Shown here: piece by piece, positions 30,599 to 43,725 of the stretch
Numbering within the stretch: position 1 is the first letter of the stretch
Layout of the letters: each line of letters opens with the position of its first letter
Source: an uncultured Chloroflexia bacterium
Lineage (GTDB): Bacteria > Chloroflexota > Limnocylindria > Limnocylindrales > CSP1-4
Direction of reading: 5' to 3'
Assembly: GCA_963842695.1 (NCBI GenBank)
Contig: CAWJHK010000006.1
Span: forward strand, 163,761 to 227,760
DNA length: 64,000 bases
Translations under genes and position numbers: made by a program
The notes under the pieces: generated by a model
What the model was told of the DNA's origin: nothing
What the model saw: the letters and a program-made list of their open reading frames with translations, nothing else
Database searches by the model: none

Positions 30599-30845
30599 CG
30601 GTTGGGGACCTCTCTGATGCGCTCTGGCCGGTCGATCGCCGGCGTCGGGCCGTATCGTCTAGGGGCCTGCCCTGGCGGCGCGGTGGGCAAGCGCCCGCGA
30701 TTCGGCCGGTCGGATGTCGGGCCGCTCGACCGGCCGGTCGACAGTGCCCGACCGACCGCTGACGGGGCGGGCATCGGCCGGATGACGTAGCCGGCATCGG
30801 CGAACGGCGATGCCGTGCTTCGGGGTCCCGTCGTATCCTCGCCCG

Positions 30846-33800
30846 GTGACCAGCCCGACCCGATCGCCCCGCCGTCGTGCCACGCCCAAGGCAGATGGTC
30901 CCGCCGCGACGCCGGTCGCTCCCGAGCGCAGCCCGTCCAATGGGCGTGCGAACGGGGGCCGCGCCCGGCTCGCGCCCGATCCCGACGGCGGCAGCGGCGA
31001 CATCCACGACCTGCTGATCGAGGCCGTCGACGAGGCGGCCCGCCTGCTCGACGCCGACGGCGCGATGGTCTACCTCATTGACCCAGCGACCGGCCATCTC
31101 CGGTTCGCCCACGATGCCGGGATCCGCAGCCGCCGGAGCCGTGCCTGGGTCCGCTCGATCGACCTGCCGATCGGCGTCGGGATGTTCGGCCAGGCCGTCG
31201 CCGAGCGCGGGGTCGTGCTCACGCACGACTACCTCGAGGACCCGGCGTTCACGCATGCCGAGGACACGGACCGGGTCGTCCGGGACATCGGCATCCGATC
31301 GATGGTCGTCGCTCCGCTGGTGGCGGGTGACACGGTGTTCGGCGCGCTCGGCACGTTCTCGGGACGGGCCGACGCCTTCAGCGCCGCCCAGATCGGCCTC
31401 GTCCGGGCCCTGGCCGACCATGCCGCCGCCGCGATGAGCAACGTCCGGCTGATCGAGGCGCTCGACAGCTCGCGCGACGAGCTCGCCAAGCGTGCCGACA
31501 TCGAACGCTCGCTGCGCGAGATCGGCGCACGGATCAGCGCCGCCGCCGATTTCAACGCCGTCCTGCAGCTGACCGTCGACGAGGCGGCGCGCCTGCTCGG
31601 CGCGGACGGCTCGCGGATCGACCTCGTCGACGAGACGACCGGGCTGCTGTTGGGCGCCTACGAGTCGGGCTCGCTGCGCCCGCTCGAGGAGCTCCCGCCT
31701 GACCCGAACGAGACGATCGATCAGGGCGTGGCCGGCCAGGCCGTCGTGACCGGCGCGCCGTTCTGGACCGGTGACTACCTGACGGACCAGCGGTTCAAGC
31801 ACCTGCCGGTCATCGACGGCTACATCAAAGAGGCAGGCGTCCGGTCCGTGCTGGCCGTCCCGCTGACCGGCGAGACGGGACCGTTCGGCGCCCTCCTCGT
31901 GTCGAGCGTCCGGGCGGATGCCTGGGGTGAGGCGGACGCCAGCCTGCTCGAGACGATCGCCGACCAGGCGTCGATCGCGATCCGCACGACGCGCCTGATC
32001 GGCGAGCTGGACCGCTCGCGCGATGCGCTCGGCCGGCGGGCCGAGGCGGAACAGGCGCTCCGCGAGATCGCCGCCCGGATCACGGTCCTCCGCGAGCCCG
32101 GCGACATCCTCCGCGACGTCGTCAAGCAGGCCGGCCGGCTGGTCCGCGCCGACGGCGTCATCCTCGACCTCCTCGATCCGGCCACCGGCAACCTCCACTG
32201 GGCGATGGACGACGGCCTGTCCGAGTTGTTCACCGAGGAGGAGCGCGCGGCACTGTGGATCTCGGTCGGCGTCGGCGCGACGGGCACCGCCGTTGCCGAG
32301 GACCGCGTGGTCCTGGCCGATGACGACCTGGCGTCGCAGTTCCCGCCCTCGGAGGAGTCGACCGACTTCTACCGCCGGACAGGGTTCCACTCGATGATCG
32401 CCGCGCCCATCACGGGCGACGCCGGTCCGCTCGGGGTGATCGAGGTCTATTCCCGGCAACGGGCGGCCTTCACCGCGACCGATGCCTCGCTCGTCGGCGC
32501 CCTGGCGAGCCAGGCCGCCATCGCCATCACGAACGCGCGGTTGATCGAGGAGCTTGCCCGTTCCCAGGTCGAGCTGTCGCGGGCCGCCGACGCCGAGCGG
32601 ACCCTTCGCGAGATCGCCAGCCGGGTGAGCGCCACCCACGACCAGGACGAGATCCTGCAGGCCGTGATCGATGCCTCCGTCCGCCTCCTCGGCGCGACCG
32701 GGGCGATGATCGACCTCCTCGGCGACACGGGCATGGCCGAGGCCTGGTCGAGCCGCGAGGCGGGCGCCCGCGCCTCGTTCAACATGCCCCTCCTGGGCGA
32801 GGTCAACCTCGCTCCCGACGCCGGCGTATCGGGCCGGGCACTGCGGACCCGACGGGTCGAGTGGACCGGGAACTATCTCGACGACGACCGCTTCCGCCAT
32901 ACCAGGGCCCGCGACGCGTTCGTCCGCGAGAGCGGGATCCGCTCGGTGATCGCCGCCCCGCTCATCCACCGCGAGGTCGTGGTCGGCGCGATCACCGTCT
33001 ACGGCGACCGCCCCGACGCGTTCGGCGAGGAGGACGCGGGGTTGCTCTCGGCGCTGGCCGACCAGGCCGCGGTCGCGATCGCCAACGCCCGCCTGATCGA
33101 CGAGCTCGAACGCTCGCGCGGGGAGGTCGCCCGGCGTGCAGACTCGGAGCGGACGCTCCGCGAGATCGCGGCCACGGTGTCGGCCATCCTCGAGCCGGAC
33201 GAGGTCCTTCAGCGGATCGTCGACGAGACGACCCGGCTGCTCGAGTCGGATGGAGCGCGCATCGACCTGTGGGACCCGGCGATCGAGGCCCTGCGCTGGT
33301 CCTACGCCGCCGGCGAGGCGATGGCCGTGGTCCCGCAGTGGGCGATGGAGGGCGGCCTGAAGCCGGGCCAGGCAGTAGCCGGCACGGCCTTCCAGGAGCG
33401 CCGCGCGGTGCGCACCGACGACTACCTGGCCGACACCCGTTTCGTCCAGGACGACGCGGCCCGGTCGTTCGTCGAGGACGCCGGCATCCGCTCGGTCATC
33501 GCCGTACCGCTGCCAGGCGAGACCGAGCCGATCGGCACGCTGTCGGTGGTATCGCGGTCCGTGGGCGCCTATGACGACGCGGACGGCGAGGTCCTGACCG
33601 CCCTGGCCACGCAGGCCTCGATCGCGATCCGCAACGCGCGCCTGATCGAGGAGCTCGCGAGATCGCGGGGGGTGATCGAACGCCGGGCCGAGGCCGAGCA
33701 GGCCCTCCGCGAGATCGCCACCCGGATCACCGCCATCCGCCGCCCGGACGACCTGCTCCAGCGGATCGTGGACGAGGCGCGCCGGCTCCTCCGCGCCGAC

Positions 33801-36800
33801 GGCGCGGTCATCGACGAATACGATGCGGTCGAAGGTGTCCTGGTCACGGCCTATGACGCGGGTCTGACCGAGGTCCAGCGCCAGTCCGTCCGGGCGACCC
33901 GCCTGCGGACGGGGGAGGGCCTGTCGGGCCGGGCGATGACGGAGGGCCGGGTCATCGCCGCCGGCGACTACCTCGAAGGCGAGTTCACCCACGTCGACTC
34001 GACCGACGCGCTCGCGCGCGAGACCGGGATCGGCGATCTCATCGTCGCACCGATCATCGGCGACGAGGGACCGTTGGGCGCGATCGAGGTCTACCGTCGG
34101 GATCGGCATGCCTTCGACGACATCGACGCCGCCGTGCTGGGCGGGCTGGCGGACCAGGCGGCCATCGCCATCACCAACGCTCGGCTGATCGAGGAGCTCG
34201 AGCGCTCGCAGGCGGCCGTCGCCCAGCGGGCCGACACGGAGCGGGCCCTGCGCGACATCACGGCCCGGATCGCGGCCCTGCGCGAGGTCGACGTCATCCT
34301 CGACCGCGTCGTCGACGAAGCCCAGCGCCTGCTCCGGAGCGACGGCGCGCACCTCACCCGGATGAGCGACGACGGCACGTACCTCGTGCCAGTGGTGGTG
34401 AGCGGGGCGAAGGGATCCAAGACCGGATCGTGGCTGCTCGGAAAGCGCTTCCCGGTCAATGGCGGCATCAACGGACTCGCGGCGGCGAGTGTCCATCCGA
34501 TCTGGACGAGCGACTACGCGAAGGACGAGCGGATCCCGCACGACCCGGACGACATCGACGTCGCGAAGCGGATGGGCCTCGTCGGGATGGCCGCCGCCCC
34601 CCTGCGGGCGCCCGGCGGCGAGGTCTTCGGGACGCTGGCGATCTCGTCGGAGCGGGCGCGAACCTTCGACGCCGAGGAGCTCGACCTCCTCCAGGGCCTC
34701 GCCGATCAGGCGGCCATCGCGATCACCAACTCGACGCTGCTCAGCCGCCTGACAGAGTCCGAGGAGCGCTATCGCTACCTCGTCGAGAACGCGCCGGACA
34801 TCGTCTGGTCGATCGACGCGGACACGCGGCTGACCTTCGTTTCCGATGCCGCCGAGCGGCTGACCGGCTTCCGCCCTGACGAGCTCGTCGGGCGCCAGTT
34901 CGGGGATCTCCTCCACCCGTCCTCGCGCGAGGTGGCCGAGTTCGACTGGGCGGCCGGCATGACGGCCGGCTCGCAGGAGGTCCGCGGCCGGGTCAACCTG
35001 TTCGGCCGCGACGGCTCGGCCATCCCGGCCGAGTTCATCGCCACGGCCCGACTCGACGACGACGGCGCGTTCATCGGCGCCAACGGCTCCGTCCGCGACA
35101 TGCGCGACCGCGACCGGCTCGAGCGCGACCTGCAGGAATCGGAGATCCGCTACCGGACGCTCGCCTCGTCGTCGCCGGACCTCGTCTTCGCCACCGATGC
35201 CGACGGCCGCTACACCTTCCTGAGCGACCGTGCCCAGGACGTGCTGGGCTGGGACCGCGAGGCATCCATCGGGATGCACTTCAGCGAGTTCGTGGCGCCC
35301 GGTGCCGAGGCGGCCGCGGCGGCGAGCTACACCGAGCTGATGGCGGCCCCGACCGAGGTCCACACCTCGCGCATCGAGTTCAAGCGCGGCGACGGGACGC
35401 CGATCCCGCTCGAGATCAACGTCGTCGGGAGCCTGGAGAACGGCCGGCTATCCGCCATCCACGGCGTCGCCCGCGACGTGTCCGAGCGCGAGCGTCTCGA
35501 GCGCGAGCTGCACGAGTCGGAGGCGCGCTACCGCCAGCTCGTCCAGACGACCCCGGACGTCATCTACCGCTGTGACGCGGACGGCCGGTTCCTGTTCATG
35601 GCCGAGGGTGCCGAAGTGCTGTTCGGCTGGAAGCCCGAGGAGATCAGCGGCCTGACCTTTGCCGACCTGACCGCCGATGAGTCGCTGGCCGAGGCTCTCG
35701 CCAACTTCGCCGAGCAGGGCCACGAGCACGACGTCATCCGCCGCTTCCGATACATGCTCAAGCGCCGGGACGGCTCGATCTTCCCCGGCGACATCTCCGC
35801 GGTGTCGGTCTGGGAGGACGGCCGGTTCGCGGGCGTGCAGGGCACGGTCCGCGACGTCAGCGACCAGGAGCGCCTCGAGCGCGAGCTCCGCGATTCGCAG
35901 GAACGCTATCGGTTCCTCGTCGAGAACTCACCCGACGTCGTGTTCGCGACCGATGCCGAGGGCCGGTTCACCTTCATGTCGGAGTCGATGGAGCGGATCA
36001 GTGGGTGGCGGCCGGACGAGGTCACCGGCGAGCATTTTTCGACGGTCGTCGACGAGAGCAGTCATGCCGAGGCTCTCGAGCGCTGGGATGCGCTCATCGC
36101 CGACCCGACCCTCGAGCAGGTCGCGGTGCTCAAGCTGCGCAGCCCGGACGGCCGGCTCATCCCCGTCGAGATCAGCTCGGTCGGGATCGTCGACGCGGCC
36201 GGTCGGTTCGGCGGGATCCACGGCTCGACCCGCGACATCAGCGAGCGTGACCGCCTCGAGCGCGAGCTGCGTGAATCCGAGGAGCGCTATCGCTATCTCG
36301 TGGCCTCGTCGCCGGACCTCGTGTGGCTGACCGACGCCGCCGGCACGCTGACCTTTATCAGCGACGCGGCGCGATCGATGCTCGGCTTCGAGCCGACCGA
36401 CCTGATGGGCCACCCGTACGCCGACATCTTCGCCCCGAGCGCCCGGCGCGATGCGACCATCCGGTTCCGCTGGCTGGCGCGCCACCCGAGCGCCGTCCAC
36501 CGCATGCGGCTGCCGTTCCGTCACGCCGACGGCCACGACGTGATGGTCGAGATCAACGGCACCGGGATGGCCAACGACGGGACGTTCGTCGGTGCCCACG
36601 GCGCGGCCCGCGATGTCAGCGAGCGCGACCGGCTCGAGCGGGACCTGCGCCGCCAGGCCGGCGAGCTGGCGGCCGGCGAGGAACGCGCCCATCTCGCCCG
36701 CGAGCTCCATGACTCTGTGACGCAGGCGTTGTTCTCGATGACGCTCGTGTCGCGATCGGTCGAGATGCTCCTCGACCGCGATCCCGAGGCGGCCAGGACG

Positions 36801-37334
36801 CAGCTCGCCCAGCTCCGCGACCTCCAGCGCGAGGCCCTCGCGGAGATGCGGGCCTTGATCTTCGAGCTGCGTCCCGGAAACCTGGAGCAGGACGGCCTGA
36901 CCCGGGCCCTGAAGACGCACACCGCGGCCCTCCAGGGCCGGATCGGTCTGCCGGTCGTGGTCGAGAGCACGGTCGACGAACGCCTTCCACTGCCGATCGA
37001 GGAGGTCCTCTACCGGATCGCCCAGGAGGCCCTCCACAACGTGGTCAAGCACGCCAACGCTCAGCAGGTTCGTGTCGAGCTCGGTCGCGTCTCGAGCGGC
37101 GTCCGCCTCCGGATCACCGACGACGGCCGCGGCTTCGATCCCGAGCGCGTGCCGGCCGGCCACCTGGGGCTGGCCGGGATGCAGGCACGGGCCACGAAGA
37201 TCGGCGCGCGGTTCACCTGCCGCAGTGAGCCCGGCTCGGGGACGACCATCGACGTGACCGTCCCGAACGCGGCGATCGCCGGCGGGGGGGCGGTTCCGGA
37301 AACGGCGGAGCCGGCGTCGATCCGCGACGGATGA
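30846..37334 (+). CDS. giant soluble sensor histidine kinase: 7 GAF + 5 PAS + HisKA_3 + HATPase (2162 aa)
   Basis: Seven repeats ending (A/G)LAxQAxIAIxNxRL, five xSEERYRxLV...PD...RD PAS/PAC units, H-box ERAHLARELHD, QEALHNVVKHA, DDGRGF, GLAGM. No TM segment; TATCCT-N6-GTG. Confidence 0.93.
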   Translation: MTSPTRSPRRRATPKADGPAATPVAPERSPSNGRANGGRARLAPDPDGGSGDIHDLLIEAVDEAARLLDADGAMVYLIDPATGHLRFAHDAGIRSRRSRAWVRSIDLPIGVGMFGQAVAERGVVLTHDYLEDPAFTHAEDTDRVVRDIGIRSMVVAPLVAGDTVFGALGTFSGRADAFSAAQIGLVRALADHAAAAMSNVRLIEALDSSRDELAKRADIERSLREIGARISAAADFNAVLQLTVDEAARLLGADGSRIDLVDETTGLLLGAYESGSLRPLEELPPDPNETIDQGVAGQAVVTGAPFWTGDYLTDQRFKHLPVIDGYIKEAGVRSVLAVPLTGETGPFGALLVSSVRADAWGEADASLLETIADQASIAIRTTRLIGELDRSRDALGRRAEAEQALREIAARITVLREPGDILRDVVKQAGRLVRADGVILDLLDPATGNLHWAMDDGLSELFTEEERAALWISVGVGATGTAVAEDRVVLADDDLASQFPPSEESTDFYRRTGFHSMIAAPITGDAGPLGVIEVYSRQRAAFTATDASLVGALASQAAIAITNARLIEELARSQVELSRAADAERTLREIASRVSATHDQDEILQAVIDASVRLLGATGAMIDLLGDTGMAEAWSSREAGARASFNMPLLGEVNLAPDAGVSGRALRTRRVEWTGNYLDDDRFRHTRARDAFVRESGIRSVIAAPLIHREVVVGAITVYGDRPDAFGEEDAGLLSALADQAAVAIANARLIDELERSRGEVARRADSERTLREIAATVSAILEPDEVLQRIVDETTRLLESDGARIDLWDPAIEALRWSYAAGEAMAVVPQWAMEGGLKPGQAVAGTAFQERRAVRTDDYLADTRFVQDDAARSFVEDAGIRSVIAVPLPGETEPIGTLSVVSRSVGAYDDADGEVLTALATQASIAIRNARLIEELARSRGVIERRAEAEQALREIATRITAIRRPDDLLQRIVDEARRLLRADGAVIDEYDAVEGVLVTAYDAGLTEVQRQSVRATRLRTGEGLSGRAMTEGRVIAAGDYLEGEFTHVDSTDALARETGIGDLIVAPIIGDEGPLGAIEVYRRDRHAFDDIDAAVLGGLADQAAIAITNARLIEELERSQAAVAQRADTERALRDITARIAALREVDVILDRVVDEAQRLLRSDGAHLTRMSDDGTYLVPVVVSGAKGSKTGSWLLGKRFPVNGGINGLAAASVHPIWTSDYAKDERIPHDPDDIDVAKRMGLVGMAAAPLRAPGGEVFGTLAISSERARTFDAEELDLLQGLADQAAIAITNSTLLSRLTESEERYRYLVENAPDIVWSIDADTRLTFVSDAAERLTGFRPDELVGRQFGDLLHPSSREVAEFDWAAGMTAGSQEVRGRVNLFGRDGSAIPAEFIATARLDDDGAFIGANGSVRDMRDRDRLERDLQESEIRYRTLASSSPDLVFATDADGRYTFLSDRAQDVLGWDREASIGMHFSEFVAPGAEAAAAASYTELMAAPTEVHTSRIEFKRGDGTPIPLEINVVGSLENGRLSAIHGVARDVSERERLERELHESEARYRQLVQTTPDVIYRCDADGRFLFMAEGAEVLFGWKPEEISGLTFADLTADESLAEALANFAEQGHEHDVIRRFRYMLKRRDGSIFPGDISAVSVWEDGRFAGVQGTVRDVSDQERLERELRDSQERYRFLVENSPDVVFATDAEGRFTFMSESMERISGWRPDEVTGEHFSTVVDESSHAEALERWDALIADPTLEQVAVLKLRSPDGRLIPVEISSVGIVDAAGRFGGIHGSTRDISERDRLERELRESEERYRYLVASSPDLVWLTDAAGTLTFISDAARSMLGFEPTDLMGHPYADIFAPSARRDATIRFRWLARHPSAVHRMRLPFRHADGHDVMVEINGTGMANDGTFVGAHGAARDVSERDRLERDLRRQAGELAAGEERAHLARELHDSVTQALFSMTLVSRSVEMLLDRDPEAARTQLAQLRDLQREALAEMRALIFELRPGNLEQDGLTRALKTHTAALQGRIGLPVVVESTVDERLPLPIEEVLYRIAQEALHNVVKHANAQQVRVELGRVSSGVRLRITDDGRGFDPERVPAGHLGLAGMQARATKIGARFTCRSEPGSGTTIDVTVPNAAIAGGGAVPETAEPASIRDG

Positions 37335-37419: not shown

Positions 37420-37830
37420 ATGCAGGCCGATCCCGGCGTCCCCGCCCCCCTTCGTGTCGTCGTCGTCGACGCGGACGACCGGGTGCGGGAGAGCCTGTCA
37501 CGCCTGCTCTGCATCGGCGATCGATTGAGGGTCGTCGGGATGGCCGGTGAGCCGGACCCCGCGCTCGATGTCGTCCGAGCGACCCGACCCGACGTGGTCG
37601 TCGTCGACCCGCGCCTGCCCGAGGTCGACAACGGTGTCAGCTTCCTGCGCCGCCTGCGCCGTGCCGCGCCGGAGGTTCGGGTGCTGGTGATGAGCGGCAC
37701 GGACCTTCCCGAGATGGACGAGGTGACGCCACTCGCGGACGGGGTCGTGCGCAAGACCTACCGTGCCACGGAGCTGCTGACAGCGATCCTCGGCGCGACG
37801 GTGATCCTCCCGCTGCTCGCCCTCGTCTGA
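37420..37830 (+). CDS. single-domain response regulator
   Basis: VVVVDAD, phosphoacceptor PDVVVVD, LVMS, VRK; no output domain. Confidence 0.8.
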   Translation: MQADPGVPAPLRVVVVDADDRVRESLSRLLCIGDRLRVVGMAGEPDPALDVVRATRPDVVVVDPRLPEVDNGVSFLRRLRRAAPEVRVLVMSGTDLPEMDEVTPLADGVVRKTYRATELLTAILGATVILPLLALV

Positions 37831-37918
37831 CCGCCGTCACGACGGCGCTTTGCTAGACTCGATGCCGCCGTCGGCGTCGACGGACCCGCGCCCTGCCGAT
37901 CCCGTCACTGGAGGCGAC

Positions 37919-38584
37919 GTGACTGACGCGCCCGTCATCCGCGTGCTCATCGTCGACGACCACTCGGTCGTGCGGATGGGCCTTCGCATGTTCTTCGAGC
38001 AGCTGCCCGATATCGAGGTCGTCGGCGAGGCGACCGACGGCTCGGAAGGCGTGGCGATGGCCCGACGTCTCGAGCCGGACGTGGTCCTGATGGACCTCCT
38101 CATGCCCAACATGGACGGCGTCACCGCCATCGGCCGGATCAAGGCCGAGCGTCCGGTCACCGAGATCGTGACCATGACCTCGTTCATCGAAGAGGAGCAG
38201 GTCACCGCCGCCCTCGAGGCCGGCGCCTCCGGCTACGTCCTGAAGGACGCCGAGGCCGAGGAGGTCGCCGCCGCGGTCCGGGCGGCCTACAACGGAGAGG
38301 TCCACCTCGACCCGGCCGTGGCCCGCCTGCTCGCCCAGCGGATGCGCAACCGGAAGAGTCCCGAGGACTCGCTCGTCGAGCCGCTGACCGACCGCGAGAA
38401 GGACGTCCTGCGCCTGCTCGGGCAGGGGATGAGCAACAAGGAGATCGGGGCGGCCCTGTTCATCACCGAGCGGACGGCCCGGACGTACGTGTCGAACATC
38501 CTGGGCAAGCTCGGCCTGGCATCTCGGACGCAGGCCGCCCTCTATGCCGTCGAGCACAAGCTCGTGGAGCCGCCGAAGGGCTGA
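37919..38584 (+). CDS. NarL/LuxR family response regulator
   Basis: GGAGG RBS; IVDDH, DVVLMD, GYVLK, LTDREKDVL...GMSNKEIG...ILGKLG..SRTQAA. Confidence 0.95.
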   Translation: MTDAPVIRVLIVDDHSVVRMGLRMFFEQLPDIEVVGEATDGSEGVAMARRLEPDVVLMDLLMPNMDGVTAIGRIKAERPVTEIVTMTSFIEEEQVTAALEAGASGYVLKDAEAEEVAAAVRAAYNGEVHLDPAVARLLAQRMRNRKSPEDSLVEPLTDREKDVLRLLGQGMSNKEIGAALFITERTARTYVSNILGKLGLASRTQAALYAVEHKLVEPPKG

Positions 38585-38895
38585 GCTCCGGGGACGTTCC
38601 GTGCGGCCGGCCCGCGCCGGCAAGGCCGGTCGGCCCGGCCGAGTTCCTGCCAGATGCCCGCCACGCGGGCACACGGCACGTCCTGCGCGGCCGGCGGCGA
38701 CCGATCCTGCATCGTCATTCACCACGTGGATGACAATGAACGTAGCGCCGCACTCGTCGACCGCATGACTATGCAACCGCCGGCCGGACCAGCCCGATGC
38801 CCGTGCCGAAGGTTCGCCTGACGGGCATTTGGCGGAAACGGTGCGGACACGCCATCGAGCGCGCGTCCGGCCCGAGGCCGGCGCCCGCGCCGACC

Positions 38896-40155
38896 CTATT
38901 CGATCGCCAGGACCCGGTACTCCCGAGCGCCCGCGGGCGCCGTGACCGTGACCACATCGCCCACGTCACGACCGAGCAGCGCCCGCCCGACCGGGGACGC
39001 CGAGGAGATCCGGCCGCGACCCGGATCAGCCTCGGCCGCCCCGACGATCGTGTAGCTGACGGTCTCGCCGTCGTCGTCGAGGGTCACGACCGAGCCCAGC
39101 CCGACACGCGACCCGGCCGCCGGCGCGGTGACGATCACCGCGGTCCGCAGCCGCGCCTCGATCGCCTGGACCCGCCCCTCGAGGAACGACTGCTCCTCGC
39201 GGGCCGCGTGGTATTCGGCATTCTCCTTGAGGTCGCCGTGCTCCTTCGCCGTCCGGATCCGGGCCACGACCTCCCGCCGTCGAACGGTGGTCAGCTCGTC
39301 GAGCTCGGCGCGAAGCCGCGTCTCTCCCTCGGGCGTGAGGGCCGTCGCGTCGACCGTGGTGGCGCCCCCGCCTCCATCACCGGCCGTCCCCGCTCCGCCC
39401 GCGCCGGCCCCGACGGTCGCCGTTGACGGCCCAGACCGGCCTGCCGCCCCGGATCCGACCCGACCCGACCGTGCCTTCCGTGGCGGCGGCTCGCCACGCG
39501 CGCCCTCCGCGTCGCCATCGGGCACGTTCACGACCCGGGTCGGTGGCGGGGGCGGCGCGGCCGGCTCCACGACGATCGAGCCGGTCAGCCCGGTCGCCTT
39601 CCGCTCACCGGTCGCGGTCCGCAGGTTGGCCCACGGAAGGACGACGTCCCGGTCGGGCAGAGCCGCCACGTCGGCCGGCGGGACACCGGCGGCAAAGGCC
39701 GTCAGCAGCGCATCCTCGTACTCCTCGGTGGCCTCGGTCGGCGCCCACCAGATCCGCACTGCGTCGAGTGACCGCATCGCCTTGAGCCAGTGGGCCGCCG
39801 AGTTCGGGCGCCGGTCGCCGAGCTCCGTCCGGTCGATTGCGGCCAGTCGCCGGGCGATCGAGGCATCCGCAGCACCGACGTACAGGATCGTCTGCGACGG
39901 CAGCCAGAATGCGGCCAGTCGGGCCGAGACCGCCTTCGACGACGGCCGCTCACCATCGAGTCGCATGGTCTCCACCCGCTCGACCCATTTCCCGACACGG
40001 GTCAGCTCGATCGGCGCGGTCGCCAGCGGCGCCGGCAGCTCGACGACGAAGACGCCCGGTCCCGTGGCGGGAACCGGCCGACCCCAGCGAACGGGGCCGT
40101 CGGCGAGGAGGCCGACCGCGCGGAGCAGCGAGGCAGCATCCGCGCCCGGGGTCAT
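38896..40155 (-). CDS. greA: GIY-YIG-like domain fused to transcription elongation factor GreA
   Basis: C-terminal ~150 aa: LTPEG..RL..EL..L...RR, HGDLKENAEYHAAREEQ, VGLGS.V, YTIVG..EADP..GRIS..SPVGRALLG. N-terminal ~195 aa: PGVFVV, ILYVG, RRL, EYED, LPWAN. Confidence 0.85.
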   Translation of the reverse strand: MTPGADAASLLRAVGLLADGPVRWGRPVPATGPGVFVVELPAPLATAPIELTRVGKWVERVETMRLDGERPSSKAVSARLAAFWLPSQTILYVGAADASIARRLAAIDRTELGDRRPNSAAHWLKAMRSLDAVRIWWAPTEATEEYEDALLTAFAAGVPPADVAALPDRDVVLPWANLRTATGERKATGLTGSIVVEPAAPPPPPTRVVNVPDGDAEGARGEPPPRKARSGRVGSGAAGRSGPSTATVGAGAGGAGTAGDGGGGATTVDATALTPEGETRLRAELDELTTVRRREVVARIRTAKEHGDLKENAEYHAAREEQSFLEGRVQAIEARLRTAVIVTAPAAGSRVGLGSVVTLDDDGETVSYTIVGAAEADPGRGRISSASPVGRALLGRDVGDVVTVTAPAGAREYRVLAIE

Positions 40156-40220
40156 CGGTCGATGGTACAGGTCGGCCGGTCGGGGTATCGTGCGGCGAGC
40201 ATGACCTGCCCACCTTCCAC

Positions 40221-41586
40221 GTGAACCGCCCCATCCGACGCCTCCTCGCCGCCGCCGCCCTCAGTGCCGTCGCGATCAGCGGCATCGTCGGGTTCATCCC
40301 GCGCGGCACCACTCCCGCCGGCGCCGTCTCGGGCGTGGCGGGCGCGGTCGCGTCCCCGGCCGCGAGTGCCGCCGAGTCGGCCACGGCCAGCGCACCAGCG
40401 TTGAGCGCGGCACCGTCGACCGCGGTCGCGCCTCGATCCCCGGCGCCGTCATCGCCGATCGCGACGCCGCGGGTCGGCCTCGACCCGACGGCCACGGCCG
40501 CCCTCGGAGCGGAGCTCGATGCTCGCGTCGAACGCTGGCGGGCGAAGCACGGTGCTCCCGGCGTCTCGGTGGCGATCGTCTTCGCCGACGGGACGGTCTG
40601 GACGGGCGCCAGCGGCCTCGCCGACGTCAAGACGGGGCGGCGCGTCACCCCCGACACGGCCTTCTCGGTGGCCAGCGTGTCGAAGACGTTCACGGCCGCG
40701 CTCATCGTCGACCTGGCGGCCGACGGCCACCTCCGTCTCGATGCCTCGGCCCGATCCTACGTGCCGGATCTCCCGATCGACAGCGCGATCACGGTCCGCC
40801 AGCTGCTCGACCACACGAGCGGCCTGCGCGACTTCTACCTGAACGGGCGCATCGACAAGGCCCTGCTCGGTGACAAGAGCCGGGAGTGGGATGCGAAGCG
40901 CTCCCTCGCCTACATCGGCAAGCCGGCCGCCCGCCCGGGCACGACGTGGCGCTACTCCAACACGAACTACCTCGTCCTCGGGCTGGTGGCCGAGGCGGTC
41001 GGCCGGGCGCCGGTCGCCGAGCAGCTGCGCGACCGGTTCCTGGACCCGCTCGGTCTCGCACGACACCTGGTTCCAGTCCGTCGAGACGGCCCGGGCGCCG
41101 GTGGCACATGCCTATCGATTCACGGGCGCGAAGCCCGCTCTCCGCCCGATCGACCTGTCGGACGGCACGCCGGTCGTGCCGTTCACCTCGGTCGTGACCG
41201 CGTCCGGTGCCGCGGGCTCGATCGCGAGCACCGCCGAGGACCTCGCCCACTGGGTCGGCGCCCTGTACGGCGGGACGGCCCTCGACCCGATGGCGCGGGC
41301 GACCATGGTGGCCGACGTCGTGGCGACCGCCCGGTACCGCCCGCGGATCCCGTACGGGCTCGGCGTTCAGGCCATCGAGATCGACGGGCGACCGACCCTC
41401 GGCCATTCCGGACGCTTCCTTGGCGCCCGCGCCGCTGCGCGGTGGCTGCCCAACCAGCGGATCGCCATCGCCGTCGTCACGAACCAGAGCCGGTCGGATC
41501 CCGCTCCGCTCGTCGCGGACCTGCTGACGATCGCGCTGAAACCGCCATCCCAGCCGGCCTGCTCGACCTGCCCGACGACGCCCTGA
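40221..41586 (+). CDS. secreted serine hydrolase (beta-lactamase class C / D-Ala-D-Ala peptidase-like); frameshift near 41060
   Basis: Signal peptide, SVSK (SxxK), LLDHTSG, YSN, GHSG. Confidence 0.85.
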
Positions 41587-41712
41587 TCGACCGCCCACGA
41601 CGCCGATCGGACGCTGTCGGCCCGGTACGAAGGGACTCCCCGCATCGGTACCGCCGGGTCTGTGCGCGTTCGCTCGGTGGCGCCAGACTGCGAAGAAGCC
41701 GGGGAAGGTGAC

Positions 41713-42306
41713 ATGTCGATTCGCGTCGATGCATACACGAGCGGGGGAATGGCGAGCGGCATCCTCGCGCGCCCGGGGCACCTCCGCGAGGCGCTCGAGT
41801 CGAATGACGAGCTCCCGCTGGATCGGGCCGCCTGGCAGGCGCTCGACGAGGAGACTCCCCACATCGCCGGGTCGATGTCGATCCCGAGCGACGACGTGCT
41901 GATCGCCGTCGGCGACGAGGATCCCGGCATCCCGGTCCACGCCGCATGGCACCACATCGAGCTCGACGCCGGGCCGTACAGCCTGGAGGGCGATCTCGCC
42001 ACGATGCCCGGCTTCGACCCGGGCCGCGCGCTGACGCGCCCCTCGGGCGAGTTCGTGCTCCTGCGCGACATCCGGCTGTCGGTCCGCGACCGGCCCGAGG
42101 CGGGGGTGGCGGTCGGCGACCACGCGCTGATCAACCGCTATGGCGTGGACCGGATCCGCGCGGACCTGATGCTCGGCTTCTTCTTCCCGGGTGCGGTGCT
42201 CGACTCCACGGCACCGACCGGTGGCACGGCACCGACCGGTGGCACGGCACCGGCGCCCGACACGGCACCTGCTCCTGACACGGCACCGGCCGGCGGAGCC
42301 GCCTGA
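41713..42306 (+). CDS. hypothetical protein with repetitive C-terminal tail
   Basis: GGAAGG RBS, GC3-biased codons, GPYSLEG...PGFDP...F motif. Confidence 0.75.
   Translation: MSIRVDAYTSGGMASGILARPGHLREALESNDELPLDRAAWQALDEETPHIAGSMSIPSDDVLIAVGDEDPGIPVHAAWHHIELDAGPYSLEGDLATMPGFDPGRALTRPSGEFVLLRDIRLSVRDRPEAGVAVGDHALINRYGVDRIRADLMLGFFFPGAVLDSTAPTGGTAPTGGTAPAPDTAPAPDTAPAGGAA
42208..42297 (+). repeat. five in-frame 18-bp tandem units (TAPTGG x2, TAPAPD x2, TAPAGG)
   Basis: acggcaccgaccggtggc twice, followed by three degenerate acggcacc-started units. Confidence 0.9.
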
Positions 42307-42330: not shown

Positions 42331-43596
42331 TCAGCGCGAATGCCCGCTCGTCGCCCCCGATCGACGTCGAACGGGCTTGCGATGCGCGTGGTGCTCGCTG
42401 CCGGTCCGGGCGTGTCCGCTCCGGGCCCCGAGCGGTCGCGGCTCGGCATTGCGATCGGGGATGAACCCTTCTTCGACAGTCCACGGGATCGCCATGCGGA
42501 GCATCCGCTGGACGGCGCGCAACAGGTCGGTCTCGTCGATGCAGACGAGCGAGATCGCCTCGCCGGTCGCCCCGGCCCGCCCCGTCCGGCCGATCCGGTG
42601 GATGTAGTCCTGCGGGTTCCACGGCAGCTCGAAGTTGACGACCGCGGGCAGGTCCTCGATGTCGAGGCCACGGGCGGCGACATCGGTCGCCACCAGGACC
42701 CGGATCTCACCGCTCTTGAAGCCTTCCAGGGCGCGCGTCCGCTCCGGCTGCGAGCGGTCGGAATGGATCGCCACCGCATCGAGCCCTTCGCGATCGAGTC
42801 GGTTGGCCAGCCGCGTCGCGGCGAGCTTGGTCCGGGTGAAGACGAGGACCTGGCGCATGTCGTTCTTGCGGATCAGGTGGGCGAGAAGGGCCTCCTTGCG
42901 GTCGCGGTCGACCGGGTAGACGAGCTGGTGGATCGCCTCCAGGGTCGTGTTCCGCGGGGCGACCTCGACCGTGGCCGGGTCGCGCAGGATGCCGCCCGAC
43001 AGGCGCCGGATGTCATCCGAGAAGGTGGCCGAGAACATCAGGTTCTGGCGCTTGGCGGGCAGCAGCGCGATGATCTTCTGGATGTCGGGCAGAAAGCCCA
43101 TGTCGAGCATCCGGTCGGCCTCGTCGAGGACGAGGATCTCGACCTGGCCGAGGTTCGCCACTCGCTGGCCGACGAGGTCGAGCAGGCGGCCCGGTGTCGC
43201 GACCAGGATCTCGATGCCACCGCGCAGGGCCTTGATCTGAGGATCCATCGGGATCCCGCCATAGACGACGGTCGAGCGCAGCGGGACGGTCCGGCCGTAG
43301 GTCTGGACGCTTTCGTCGACCTGCATCGCGAGCTCGCGGGTCGGGACGAGGATCAGGACGAGGACCGGGTGACGGGCGGGCGAGAAGCTGGTATTCGCCC
43401 GGCTGCGCAGGCGGTCGAGGATGGGCAGCACGAACGCGGCGGTCTTGCCGGTACCGGTCTGCGCGGCTGCCAGGACGTCGCGCCCGGCGAGCACGAGGGG
43501 GATGGCCGCTTCCTGGACGGGGGTGGGCTGTTCGTAGCCCTCCTCGCCCACCATCCGGACGAGGTCGGCCGACAGGCCGAGTGAATCGAAGGTCAA
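42331..43596 (-). CDS. rhlE: DEAD-box RNA helicase (RhlE-like)
   Basis: AGGAG-N6-TTG start; Q motif, AQTGTGKT, PTREL, TPGR, DEAD, SAT, ARGLD, HRIGRTGRAG. Confidence 0.9.
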   Translation of the reverse strand: MTFDSLGLSADLVRMVGEEGYEQPTPVQEAAIPLVLAGRDVLAAAQTGTGKTAAFVLPILDRLRSRANTSFSPARHPVLVLILVPTRELAMQVDESVQTYGRTVPLRSTVVYGGIPMDPQIKALRGGIEILVATPGRLLDLVGQRVANLGQVEILVLDEADRMLDMGFLPDIQKIIALLPAKRQNLMFSATFSDDIRRLSGGILRDPATVEVAPRNTTLEAIHQLVYPVDRDRKEALLAHLIRKNDMRQVLVFTRTKLAATRLANRLDREGLDAVAIHSDRSQPERTRALEGFKSGEIRVLVATDVAARGLDIEDLPAVVNFELPWNPQDYIHRIGRTGRAGATGEAISLVCIDETDLLRAVQRMLRMAIPWTVEEGFIPDRNAEPRPLGARSGHARTGSEHHAHRKPVRRRSGATSGHSR

Positions 43597-43725
43597 CCGT
43601 CGCTCCTGTGTGGTCCCGTCGCCGGCACCCGGTTCGGACTGCGACGGTGGCCCCGCACGACGTGCTAGGACGGCATCGGCCGTCCGGGCCGCGGCGAGCA
43701 TAGCCGAAATGACTAGCATCCGACC

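Follow-up and report, generated by a model that had tools for sequence, protein, structure and literature searches.

A GreA fused to a divergent, catalytically eroding GIY-YIG domain as a second Gre factor in one family of soil Chloroflexota

As a rule, a Gre factor is a small protein encoded on its own, and its action is confined to the secondary channel of RNA polymerase. In this study we analysed a stretch of 64,000 nucleotides from an uncultured Chloroflexia bacterium of the order Limnocylindrales (assembly GCA_963842695.1, contig CAWJHK010000006.1, positions 163,761 to 227,760), hereafter called the window, in which a single gene encodes a folded N-terminal domain, a flexible linker and a complete GreA. 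The closest known domains to the N-terminal one are the GIY-YIG domain at the N-terminus of UvrC (PDB 1ycz and 1yd6) and the GIY-YIG domain of the DEDD-exonuclease type. In comparison to UvrC, the window domain carries an insertion of about 50 residues, predicted as two helices in the secondary structure of the AlphaFold2 (AF2) model, that separates the GIY and YIG strands, a PHxGGHWLK motif that is extra also with respect to canonical GIY-YIG domains, a phenylalanine in place of the first catalytic tyrosine and the fusion to GreA. Moreover, the window protein is devoid of the UvrB-binding, Endo V and HhH domains, and a true UvrC is encoded separately in 24 of 24 same-genus relatives.

The order of nuclease domain, flexible linker and C-terminal targeting module resembles that of I-TevI. 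However, the targeting module is here an RNA-polymerase-binding transcription factor and not a DNA-binding domain, and the fused gene is chromosomal and apparently inherited vertically, rather than being borne by an intron or a phage, with catalytic residues that are decaying. The Gre part is like canonical GreA (TIGR01462) in being a complete Gre factor that scores above the family cut-off and has an intact acidic tip, and the large N-terminal extension is shared with the long Gre fusions NF004969 and NF011309, which probably correspond to the long Gre proteins of chlamydiae and spirochaetes mentioned in an earlier sequence-only reading of the window. Of the window protein, these long-form models cover the Gre part alone (profile positions 570-703 of 718 and 761-901 of 906), with scores that fall far short of the respective cut-offs, and thus their extensions are unrelated to the window N-domain. 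The present protein also differs from the long forms in that its extension is a GIY-YIG fold and that it coexists with a canonical GreA. A nuclease-type domain and a Gre-derived RNA-polymerase-binding domain occur in one polypeptide in the effector-TPR-GreA/B-C-PIN conflict systems as well, for which Kaur et al. (2021, eLife, PMC8195603) describe the C-terminal Gre domain alone in combination with TPR and PIN, variable effectors and fast evolution. In contrast, the window protein contains a whole GreA, ends at residue 419 with neither TPR nor PIN, is conserved family-wide and has a nuclease domain that appears to be becoming inactive. The sequence-only reading had named no description of the architecture, and no combination of GreA and GIY-YIG was found in a literature search to which the source-data architecture tables of PMC8195603 did not belong. 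What appears to be new is the kind of domain appended to the Gre factor and, seen from the other side, the partner to which this GIY-YIG subfamily is joined.

Through this single-gene fusion, one family of soil Chloroflexota possesses a specialised Gre factor in addition to the canonical one. With regard to its function, we put the chances at about even that the protein acts as a Gre factor on a tether to a pseudonuclease that binds nucleic acid and is mostly non-catalytic. The gene is an uninterrupted open reading frame of 419 codons, as had been claimed; the list of reading frames and the translation bear this out and place it on the minus strand, whereas the sequence-only reading had given no strand. 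Its parts are listed below.

38896..40155, minus strand: whole gene, 419 codons and stop, encoding the GIY-YIG-like domain, linker and GreA
39571..40155, minus strand: N-terminal domain, residues 1-195, divergent UvrC-like GIY-YIG fold
40042..40059, minus strand: PGVFVV, residues 33-38, GIY strand in which Phe36 replaces the first catalytic Tyr
39874..39888, minus strand: ILYVG, residues 90-94, the YIG strand, which contains Tyr92 and Gly94 and is matched to UvrC YVGKA (hmmsearch against the PDB, hhalign)
39844..39855, minus strand: ARRL, residues 101-104, helix with Arg103, which is invariant in alignment A1 (see below) and falls on the invariant Arg of UvrC-type domains
39712..39726, minus strand: EEYED, residues 144-148, helix with Glu147, presumed to bind metal, invariant in A1 and on the invariant Glu of UvrC-type domains
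39625..39639, minus strand: LPWAN, residues 173-177, loop with Asn177
39346..39570, minus strand: linker, residues 196-270, predicted to be disordered, rich in Pro, Ala, Gly, Ser and Thr
39487..39540, minus strand: acidic mini-motif TRVVNVPDGDAEGARGEP, residues 206-223, inside the linker, kept in the closer fused homologues
39133..39339, minus strand: GreA N-terminal coiled coil, residues 273-341 (PF03449), with model helices at 275-305 and 313-338
39211..39240, minus strand: acidic tip HGDLKENAEY, residues 306-315, with tip residues invariant in 24 fused proteins
38899..39111, minus strand: GreA C-terminal globular domain, residues 349-419 (PF01272)

The six motifs that had been quoted from the sequence alone (PGVFVV, ILYVG, ARRL, EEYED, LPWAN and HGDLKENAEY) were all found, in the order given. 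In addition, the proposed layout of a globular domain of about 195 residues, a linker of about 70 residues and a complete GreA (residues 271-419) agrees with the full-length AF2 model, which has a predicted local distance difference test (pLDDT) score of 84.7 and a predicted template modelling (pTM) score of 0.50. The model is structured from residue 1 to about 195 and from 271 to 419, with pLDDT below 50 at 214-221 and 227-268; the two domains are modelled with confidence and the contacts between them are not.

The assignment of the N-terminal domain to the GIY-YIG fold is based on several comparisons. When residues 1-200 were searched against 1.84 billion cluster representatives, 831 clusters (50% identity) were obtained at E ≤ 1e-3, with 602 of them reaching E ≤ 1e-10, comprising fused forms of about 400 residues and stand-alone forms of about 200 residues. 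In the alignment of the window domain with 27 stand-alone proteins (A1), G34, G94, R103 and E147 were invariant and Y36, Y92, H118, G120, G121 and N177 nearly so, and the AF2 model of the domain computed on A1 reached a pLDDT of 95 and a pTM of 0.90. In a wide structure search with VIA-align over 48,161 chains, ranks 1-7 of the 15 rows were all GIY-YIG nucleases. The profile-profile comparison by hhalign of A1 with A5, in which 12 UvrC-type GIY-YIG domains encoded by Chloroflexota genomes are aligned, gave a probability of 96.3% and an E-value of 2e-9 over 63 columns, with Y92, R103 and E147 placed on invariant Tyr, Arg and Glu. The best PDB profile match of A1 found by hmmsearch was UvrC (E 0.2), on the YIG-Tyr/Arg motif, and sub-threshold matches among the A1 members were seen for Pfam GIY_YIG_2 (7/28), Pfam GIY-YIG (6/28) and NCBIfam uvrC (8/28).

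The window domain taken alone matched no Pfam family at E ≤ 1 and no NCBIfam family, and phmmer against the PDB returned only chance rows. As to the structural check that had been proposed, the profile-profile comparison and the wide structure search were positive, and Foldseek against the PDB yielded nothing at E ≤ 1e-3, with R.Eco29kI rows appearing only at E of about 1. As a lead only, the nearest clusters in the ESM Atlas were unnamed proteins of about 200 residues, and clusters bearing GIY-YIG stood at ranks 22 and 26 with shares of 12-17%. The window protein displays the fold, the profile similarity, the Tyr-x-Gly of the second motif (Y92-V-G94), Arg103 and Glu147, whereas the tyrosine of the first motif is replaced by Phe36. 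That Phe36 corresponds to the first Tyr is deduced from the PGVY motif common to both families, invariant in A5, rather than from superposing the structures residue by residue. The window protein also has N177, a position almost invariant among its stand-alone relatives; as the alignment to the UvrC profile stops short of it, its equivalence to the conserved Asn is suggested by motif order only. The tests run support the GIY-YIG assignment that the sequence-only reading had made, and point to a divergent, UvrC-like form of this fold for residues 1-195.

That reading had also called the domain degenerate, on the grounds of the phenylalanine at the first Tyr. In order to count residues at the catalytic positions, the query and 150 listed representatives were scored with hidden Markov models (HMMs), the HMM for this purpose being built from stand-alone sequences. 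The numbers of proteins retaining each residue are given below for 30 stand-alone and 29 GreA-fused proteins (gaps excluded in the fused group); the two groups are related clades, and the losses are not independent events.

Y36: stand-alone 30/30; fused 11/27 (Phe in 14)
Y92: stand-alone 29/30; fused 20/28
R103: stand-alone 30/30; fused 26/28
H118: stand-alone 30/30; fused 8/28
K125: stand-alone 29/30; fused 13/28
E147: stand-alone 29/30; fused 20/26 (lost in 6/26)
N177: stand-alone 29/30; fused 18/25 (lost in 7/25)

The degeneracy thus extends to the whole fused clade, which is losing catalytic residues that its stand-alone relatives keep. The full Y-Y-R-H-E-N set was kept by only 2 of the 29 fused representatives, and five of the six residues by seven more. 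The window protein reads F-Y-R-N-E-N, i.e., four of the six are kept, with Phe36 and Asn118 as the replacements; the loss of His118 and of the GG motif goes beyond what had been seen earlier. Other fused relatives read FFRFAN or VYRLAT. To judge from these alignments, the fused clade is losing its catalytic residues lineage by lineage, and the fold and many other positions stay conserved.

For comparison, the active site of R.Eco29kI consists of Y49, Y76, R104, H108, E142 and N154, and the variants Y49A, H108F and E142A had no detectable activity, according to PMC1952068. In addition, the title of a PDB entry names the Y49F variant of R.Eco29kI as inactive. Catalytic residues are being lost across the clade and equivalent substitutions kill R.Eco29kI; because of this, a function common to the clade cannot depend on canonical catalysis. 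The same two points speak against an alternative in which the protein would be an active nuclease tethered to RNA polymerase, perhaps with an altered mechanism tolerating Phe36, that GreA delivers to stalled complexes in order to nick lesion-bearing DNA, cut an R-loop or process the transcript. What could favour such an enzyme is that Y92, R103, E147 and N177 are kept in the window protein, that the two representatives with all six residues and the seven with five exist, and that the parent family resembles active modular nucleases with targeting domains. Against this stand the 14 of 27 proteins with Phe at the first Tyr, the low retention of His118, the losses of Glu147 and Asn177, the FFRFAN and VYRLAT patterns and the inactivity of the R.Eco29kI variants, and we regard the alternative as rather doubtful. 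Similarly doubtful, in our view, is a reading in which the GIY-YIG domain is still an enzyme in at least part of the clade. As a nuclease brought to backtracked RNA polymerase by the secondary-channel factor, it would cut DNA, an R-loop or nascent RNA in a transcription-coupled manner, and this would open a way to incision or transcript processing that needs neither Mfd nor UvrC; the eroded members, including the window protein, would then be pseudoenzymes keeping only their grip on the substrate.

In contrast to the eroding N-domain sites, the GreA part shows no sign of decay at its tip. The claim that GreA is complete and has the acidic tip was upheld by matches to Pfam PF03449 (GreA_GreB_N, residues 273-341, 89.1 bits, cut-off 24.5) and PF01272 (GreA_GreB, residues 349-419, 88.7 bits, cut-off 26.9), as well as to NCBIfam TIGR01462 (greA, 163 bits, cut-off 139) and NF001263 (157.8 bits, cut-off 145). 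G307, D308, L309, E311, N312 and Y315 were invariant in 24 fused proteins, and invariance extends to the GreA C-terminal domain; D308 and E311 we take to be the catalytic acidic pair of GreA (GDLxEN motif). The linkers of 144 fused proteins in which both domains are complete measured 44-129 residues (median 66) and consisted to about 62% of Pro, Ala, Gly, Ser and Thr, with a positive net charge in 106 of the 144. A P-x-G-x-A-[DE]-G pattern was detected in 99 of these 144 linkers, a set dominated by close relatives, and the acidic mini-motif is also found in P0135, whose C-terminal domain is a different one.

According to the reading that we prefer, a Gre factor tethered to a pseudonuclease, the Gre part would act as general knowledge of GreA predicts, docking on the rim of the secondary channel of RNA polymerase, inserting its acidic tip and stimulating cleavage of backtracked RNA. 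The N-domain descends from modular nucleases that occur by themselves or, joined by linkers, in front of various other C-terminal modules, among them a HARE-HTH-like one. Here, with Phe36 and Asn118, and in most of the clade, its canonical nuclease function is probably gone, as the conservation pattern suggests, and it could serve as a non-catalytic module for nucleic-acid binding or anchoring. Held by a long, mostly basic tether, it might grip the DNA or the nascent RNA of the same elongation complex, and this grip could keep the Gre moiety on particular paused or backtracked complexes or steer it toward them.

The joining of the two parts by an assembly indel had been named as what would undermine the fusion. 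A word-indexed protein search with the full-length query, in which 8000 candidates were scored, returned 2236 proteins at E ≤ 1e-3, of which 120 were listed. All of the 120 listed homologues, which come from several sources, were 391-430 residues long, covered 96-100% of the query at 67-80% identity and had both Gre Pfam domains. Among the 80 metagenome loci with the highest similarity to the N-domain, 58 had this domain in one stop-free frame with the Gre part, and the remaining 22 comprised 14 cut by a contig end and 8 that ended without a Gre domain. Open frames of 423-958 codons spanned the match in same-genus genomes. Moreover, when soil contigs from four sequencing runs, all of them short, were aligned to the locus, the pieces 39235-39410, 39416-39717, 39482-39873 and 39495-39645 bridged both domain-linker junctions without a gap, so that the proposed look across the linker showed the two junctions to be continuous. 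The whole linker or the whole gene was spanned by none of the listed pieces, 105 further ones existing beyond these, and none of those listed covered 39411-39415.

Apart from two low-depth soil contigs, nothing was found that would favour an artefact. One of them has a 1-nt insertion behind 39803. In the other, from run X9 (depth 2), 38893 is connected to 40030 through 22 other letters. Such a variant would be without nearly all of the fused gene, and either chimeric assembly of the contig or a deletion in some relative could account for it. Because independent assemblies and relatives carry the fusion in one frame, an indel artefact is excluded, and we regard such an origin, or a mis-called reading frame, as vanishingly improbable; the relatives show a single gene and not two. 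In a separate observation, the depth of the soil contigs peaked 10- to 40-fold over the codons of the Gre acidic tip (39186-39239), a conserved stretch that is matched by greA contigs of many other organisms, all of which have G and not A at 39220. The 20 matching sequencing runs were contig sets of soil or rhizosphere DNA, with at most 0.48 of the sampled words found, and no RNA run was listed among them.

We also evaluated how widely the fusion occurs. In a sample of 401 genomes drawn evenly over the phylum, strong matches to the fusion were present in 23/23 genomes of the family to which the window belongs, in 1/16 of a sister family and in 0/4 of a small-genome family. The rest of the sample gave weak matches only, which were either truncated with internal stops or showed the YIG-Arg motif in frames of about 680-770 residues. 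A first draw had found the fusion in 19/24 same-genus genomes and 0/16 genomes of the small-genome family. The search of relatives that had been suggested thus recovered the fusion throughout the family, in addition to the counts for Y/F, R, E and N given above. A quick tree placed 22/22 complete fused rows in one clade of 37 rows (Shimodaira-Hasegawa-like approximate likelihood ratio test support 94), the other rows of which were mostly truncated fused proteins, and this would be consistent with one fusion event. All fused loci but two were labelled Chloroflexota, Chloroflexia or Candidatus Limnocylindrales. Spread to other phyla, as the labels Deferrimicrobiaceae and Saccharimonadales on metagenome-assembled genomes would imply, was discarded in favour of doubtful binning; L014 shares the neighbours of the window. 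A further set of 80 loci on genome contigs was found with patterns for the Gre part, and full or partial fused forms were only L009-L020; most of these 80 are plain greA because the patterns were drawn from the Gre part. The distribution indicates that the fusion is inherited vertically, with a housekeeping-like spread in one family of soil Chloroflexota.

This pattern bears on the possibility that the protein belongs to an anti-phage or conflict system that uses its Gre domain to reach a hijacked RNA polymerase. The idea is brought up by the nuclease effectors fused to the GreA/B C-terminal domain that are described as conflict systems in PMC8195603. However, neither TPR nor PIN was detected in the window protein (Pfam, E ≤ 1), the Gre factor is complete including its coiled coil, PADLOC matched 0/28 family members, the gene is present in every one of the 23 family genomes with stable synteny, and the nuclease residues are eroding and not diversifying. 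We therefore consider membership in such a system highly unlikely.

When asked whether this is the only greA of the genome, the answer was negative: a canonical greA lies elsewhere on the same contig and is 50% identical to the fused Gre part. Most same-genus genomes gave a pair of Gre matches, of which one fell within a long frame and the other within a short, canonical one; in the small-genome family there was a single match. The fused gene is an extra Gre paralogue. This genome yielded no uvrC and no GIY-YIG Pfam match in an assembly that is 59% complete, and the absence of uvrC is likely due to this incompleteness. The notion that the fusion substitutes for a missing UvrC or Mfd was ruled out, since uvrC occurs in 24/24 same-genus relatives, and mfd in this genome and in 40/40 relatives.

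At the same time, the N-domain is not confined to Gre partners. Members of the parent family bear other C-terminal modules behind similar linkers (P0229, P0230, P0252 and P0261; P0244 and P0245; P0135, P0138, P0162 and P0175). One type of module gave weak HARE-HTH matches in Pfam (E 0.0083 and 0.11) that covered almost the entire profile. A second type resembles a B3-like DNA-binding barrel, and neither this nor the third type, of about 70 residues, had a Pfam match. No curated Pfam or NCBIfam model exists for the N-domain family. The N-domain clusters make up an unnamed family of putative modular GIY-YIG nucleases.

The fused gene is convergent with a gene for a LuxR-type response regulator and divergent from a gene of the beta-lactamase family. 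Further upstream, on the same strand, lies a helicase gene.

42334..43701, minus strand: RhlE-like DEAD-box RNA helicase (Pfam DEAD and Helicase_C), linked neighbour separated from the fused gene by two opposite-strand genes

The best NCBIfam match of the helicase was RhlE, at 557 bits and thus below the cut-off of 743 bits. An RhlE-like helicase was located upstream on the same strand in 15 of the 28 N-domain loci for which 3.5 kb or more of upstream sequence was available and in 23/56 when the limit was 1.5 kb, in comparison to 0/52 plain-greA loci from other bacteria. The helicase-linked loci include L111, L115-L118, L157 and L165, and in seven loci the helicase is directly adjacent (21-157 nt). 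This linkage, together with positions conserved only in the fused clade, e.g., E39 and W136-W137, could be taken to mean that the N-domain is a protein-interaction or regulatory module that binds the surface of RNA polymerase, the RhlE-like helicase or a repair factor, or that gates the Gre moiety. However, synteny passed down within a single lineage may explain the linkage, because the plain-greA controls come from other phyla; moreover, the genes between the helicase and the fused gene vary among the loci and lie on the other strand in the window. We consider a protein module of this kind unlikely, and our preference remains with the nucleic-acid-binding pseudonuclease.

Some other features of the surroundings can be noted. 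The beta-lactamase-family gene (PF00144, 40221-41586, plus strand) is split, with 40221-41000 matching profile positions 2-159 and 40870-41583, in another frame, positions 172-317; a frameshift, a pseudogene or an assembly error near 40900-41000 would account for this. Intact PF00144 genes hold the same position in L009, L014 and L103. On the other side, a plus-strand frame of 2174 codons (30810-37334) encodes repeated sensor-like segments and a histidine-kinase-like C-terminus, as read from the translation, and is followed by a frame at 37420-37830 (plus strand) whose translation is receiver-domain-like and another at 37850-38584 (plus strand) with Pfam Response_reg and GerE/LuxR matches. In addition, the end of the hypothetical frame 41662-42306 contains tandem peptide repeats at about 42230-42300 (APTGGT three times, then APAPDT-like), which are mirrored in overlapping frames.

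The start of the fused gene is backed by homologues that start at the same position. Directly in front of it the following element was noted.

40156..40167, minus strand: TACCAT with a 6-nt spacer to the ATG, candidate -10 element for leaderless transcription

TACCAT occupies 40162-40167 and is followed by 6 nt and the ATG at 40153-40155. The string TGTACCATCG(A/G)CCGATGAC around it was kept in 4/5 same-genus loci, the fifth (L007) having failed to align. With respect to the leaderless promoter that had been proposed here, the sequence is present as described, but a strict sigma-70 consensus scan of 38500-40500 gave 0 sites on both strands, a result that neither supports a promoter nor rules out an internal one. 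A terminator consensus scan of the same interval gave no match. We consider TACCAT-N6-ATG a plausible but unproven candidate for a leaderless promoter.

Taken as a whole, the finding means that a second Gre factor has been retained throughout an entire, abundant family of soil Chloroflexota, permanently tied to a UvrC-type fold that appears to be turning into a pseudoenzyme. Should the N-domain bind DNA or RNA, the protein would be a naturally occurring secondary-channel factor with a nucleic-acid anchor of its own, and it may provide a handle on how backtrack rescue is directed to complexes at lesions, R-loops or structured RNA. If the N-domain still cuts, it would represent a new kind of transcription-coupled nuclease. 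Either way, the analysis defines an unnamed GIY-YIG subfamily of 831 clusters at 50% identity, in which the active site can be followed through a series from intact to eroded.

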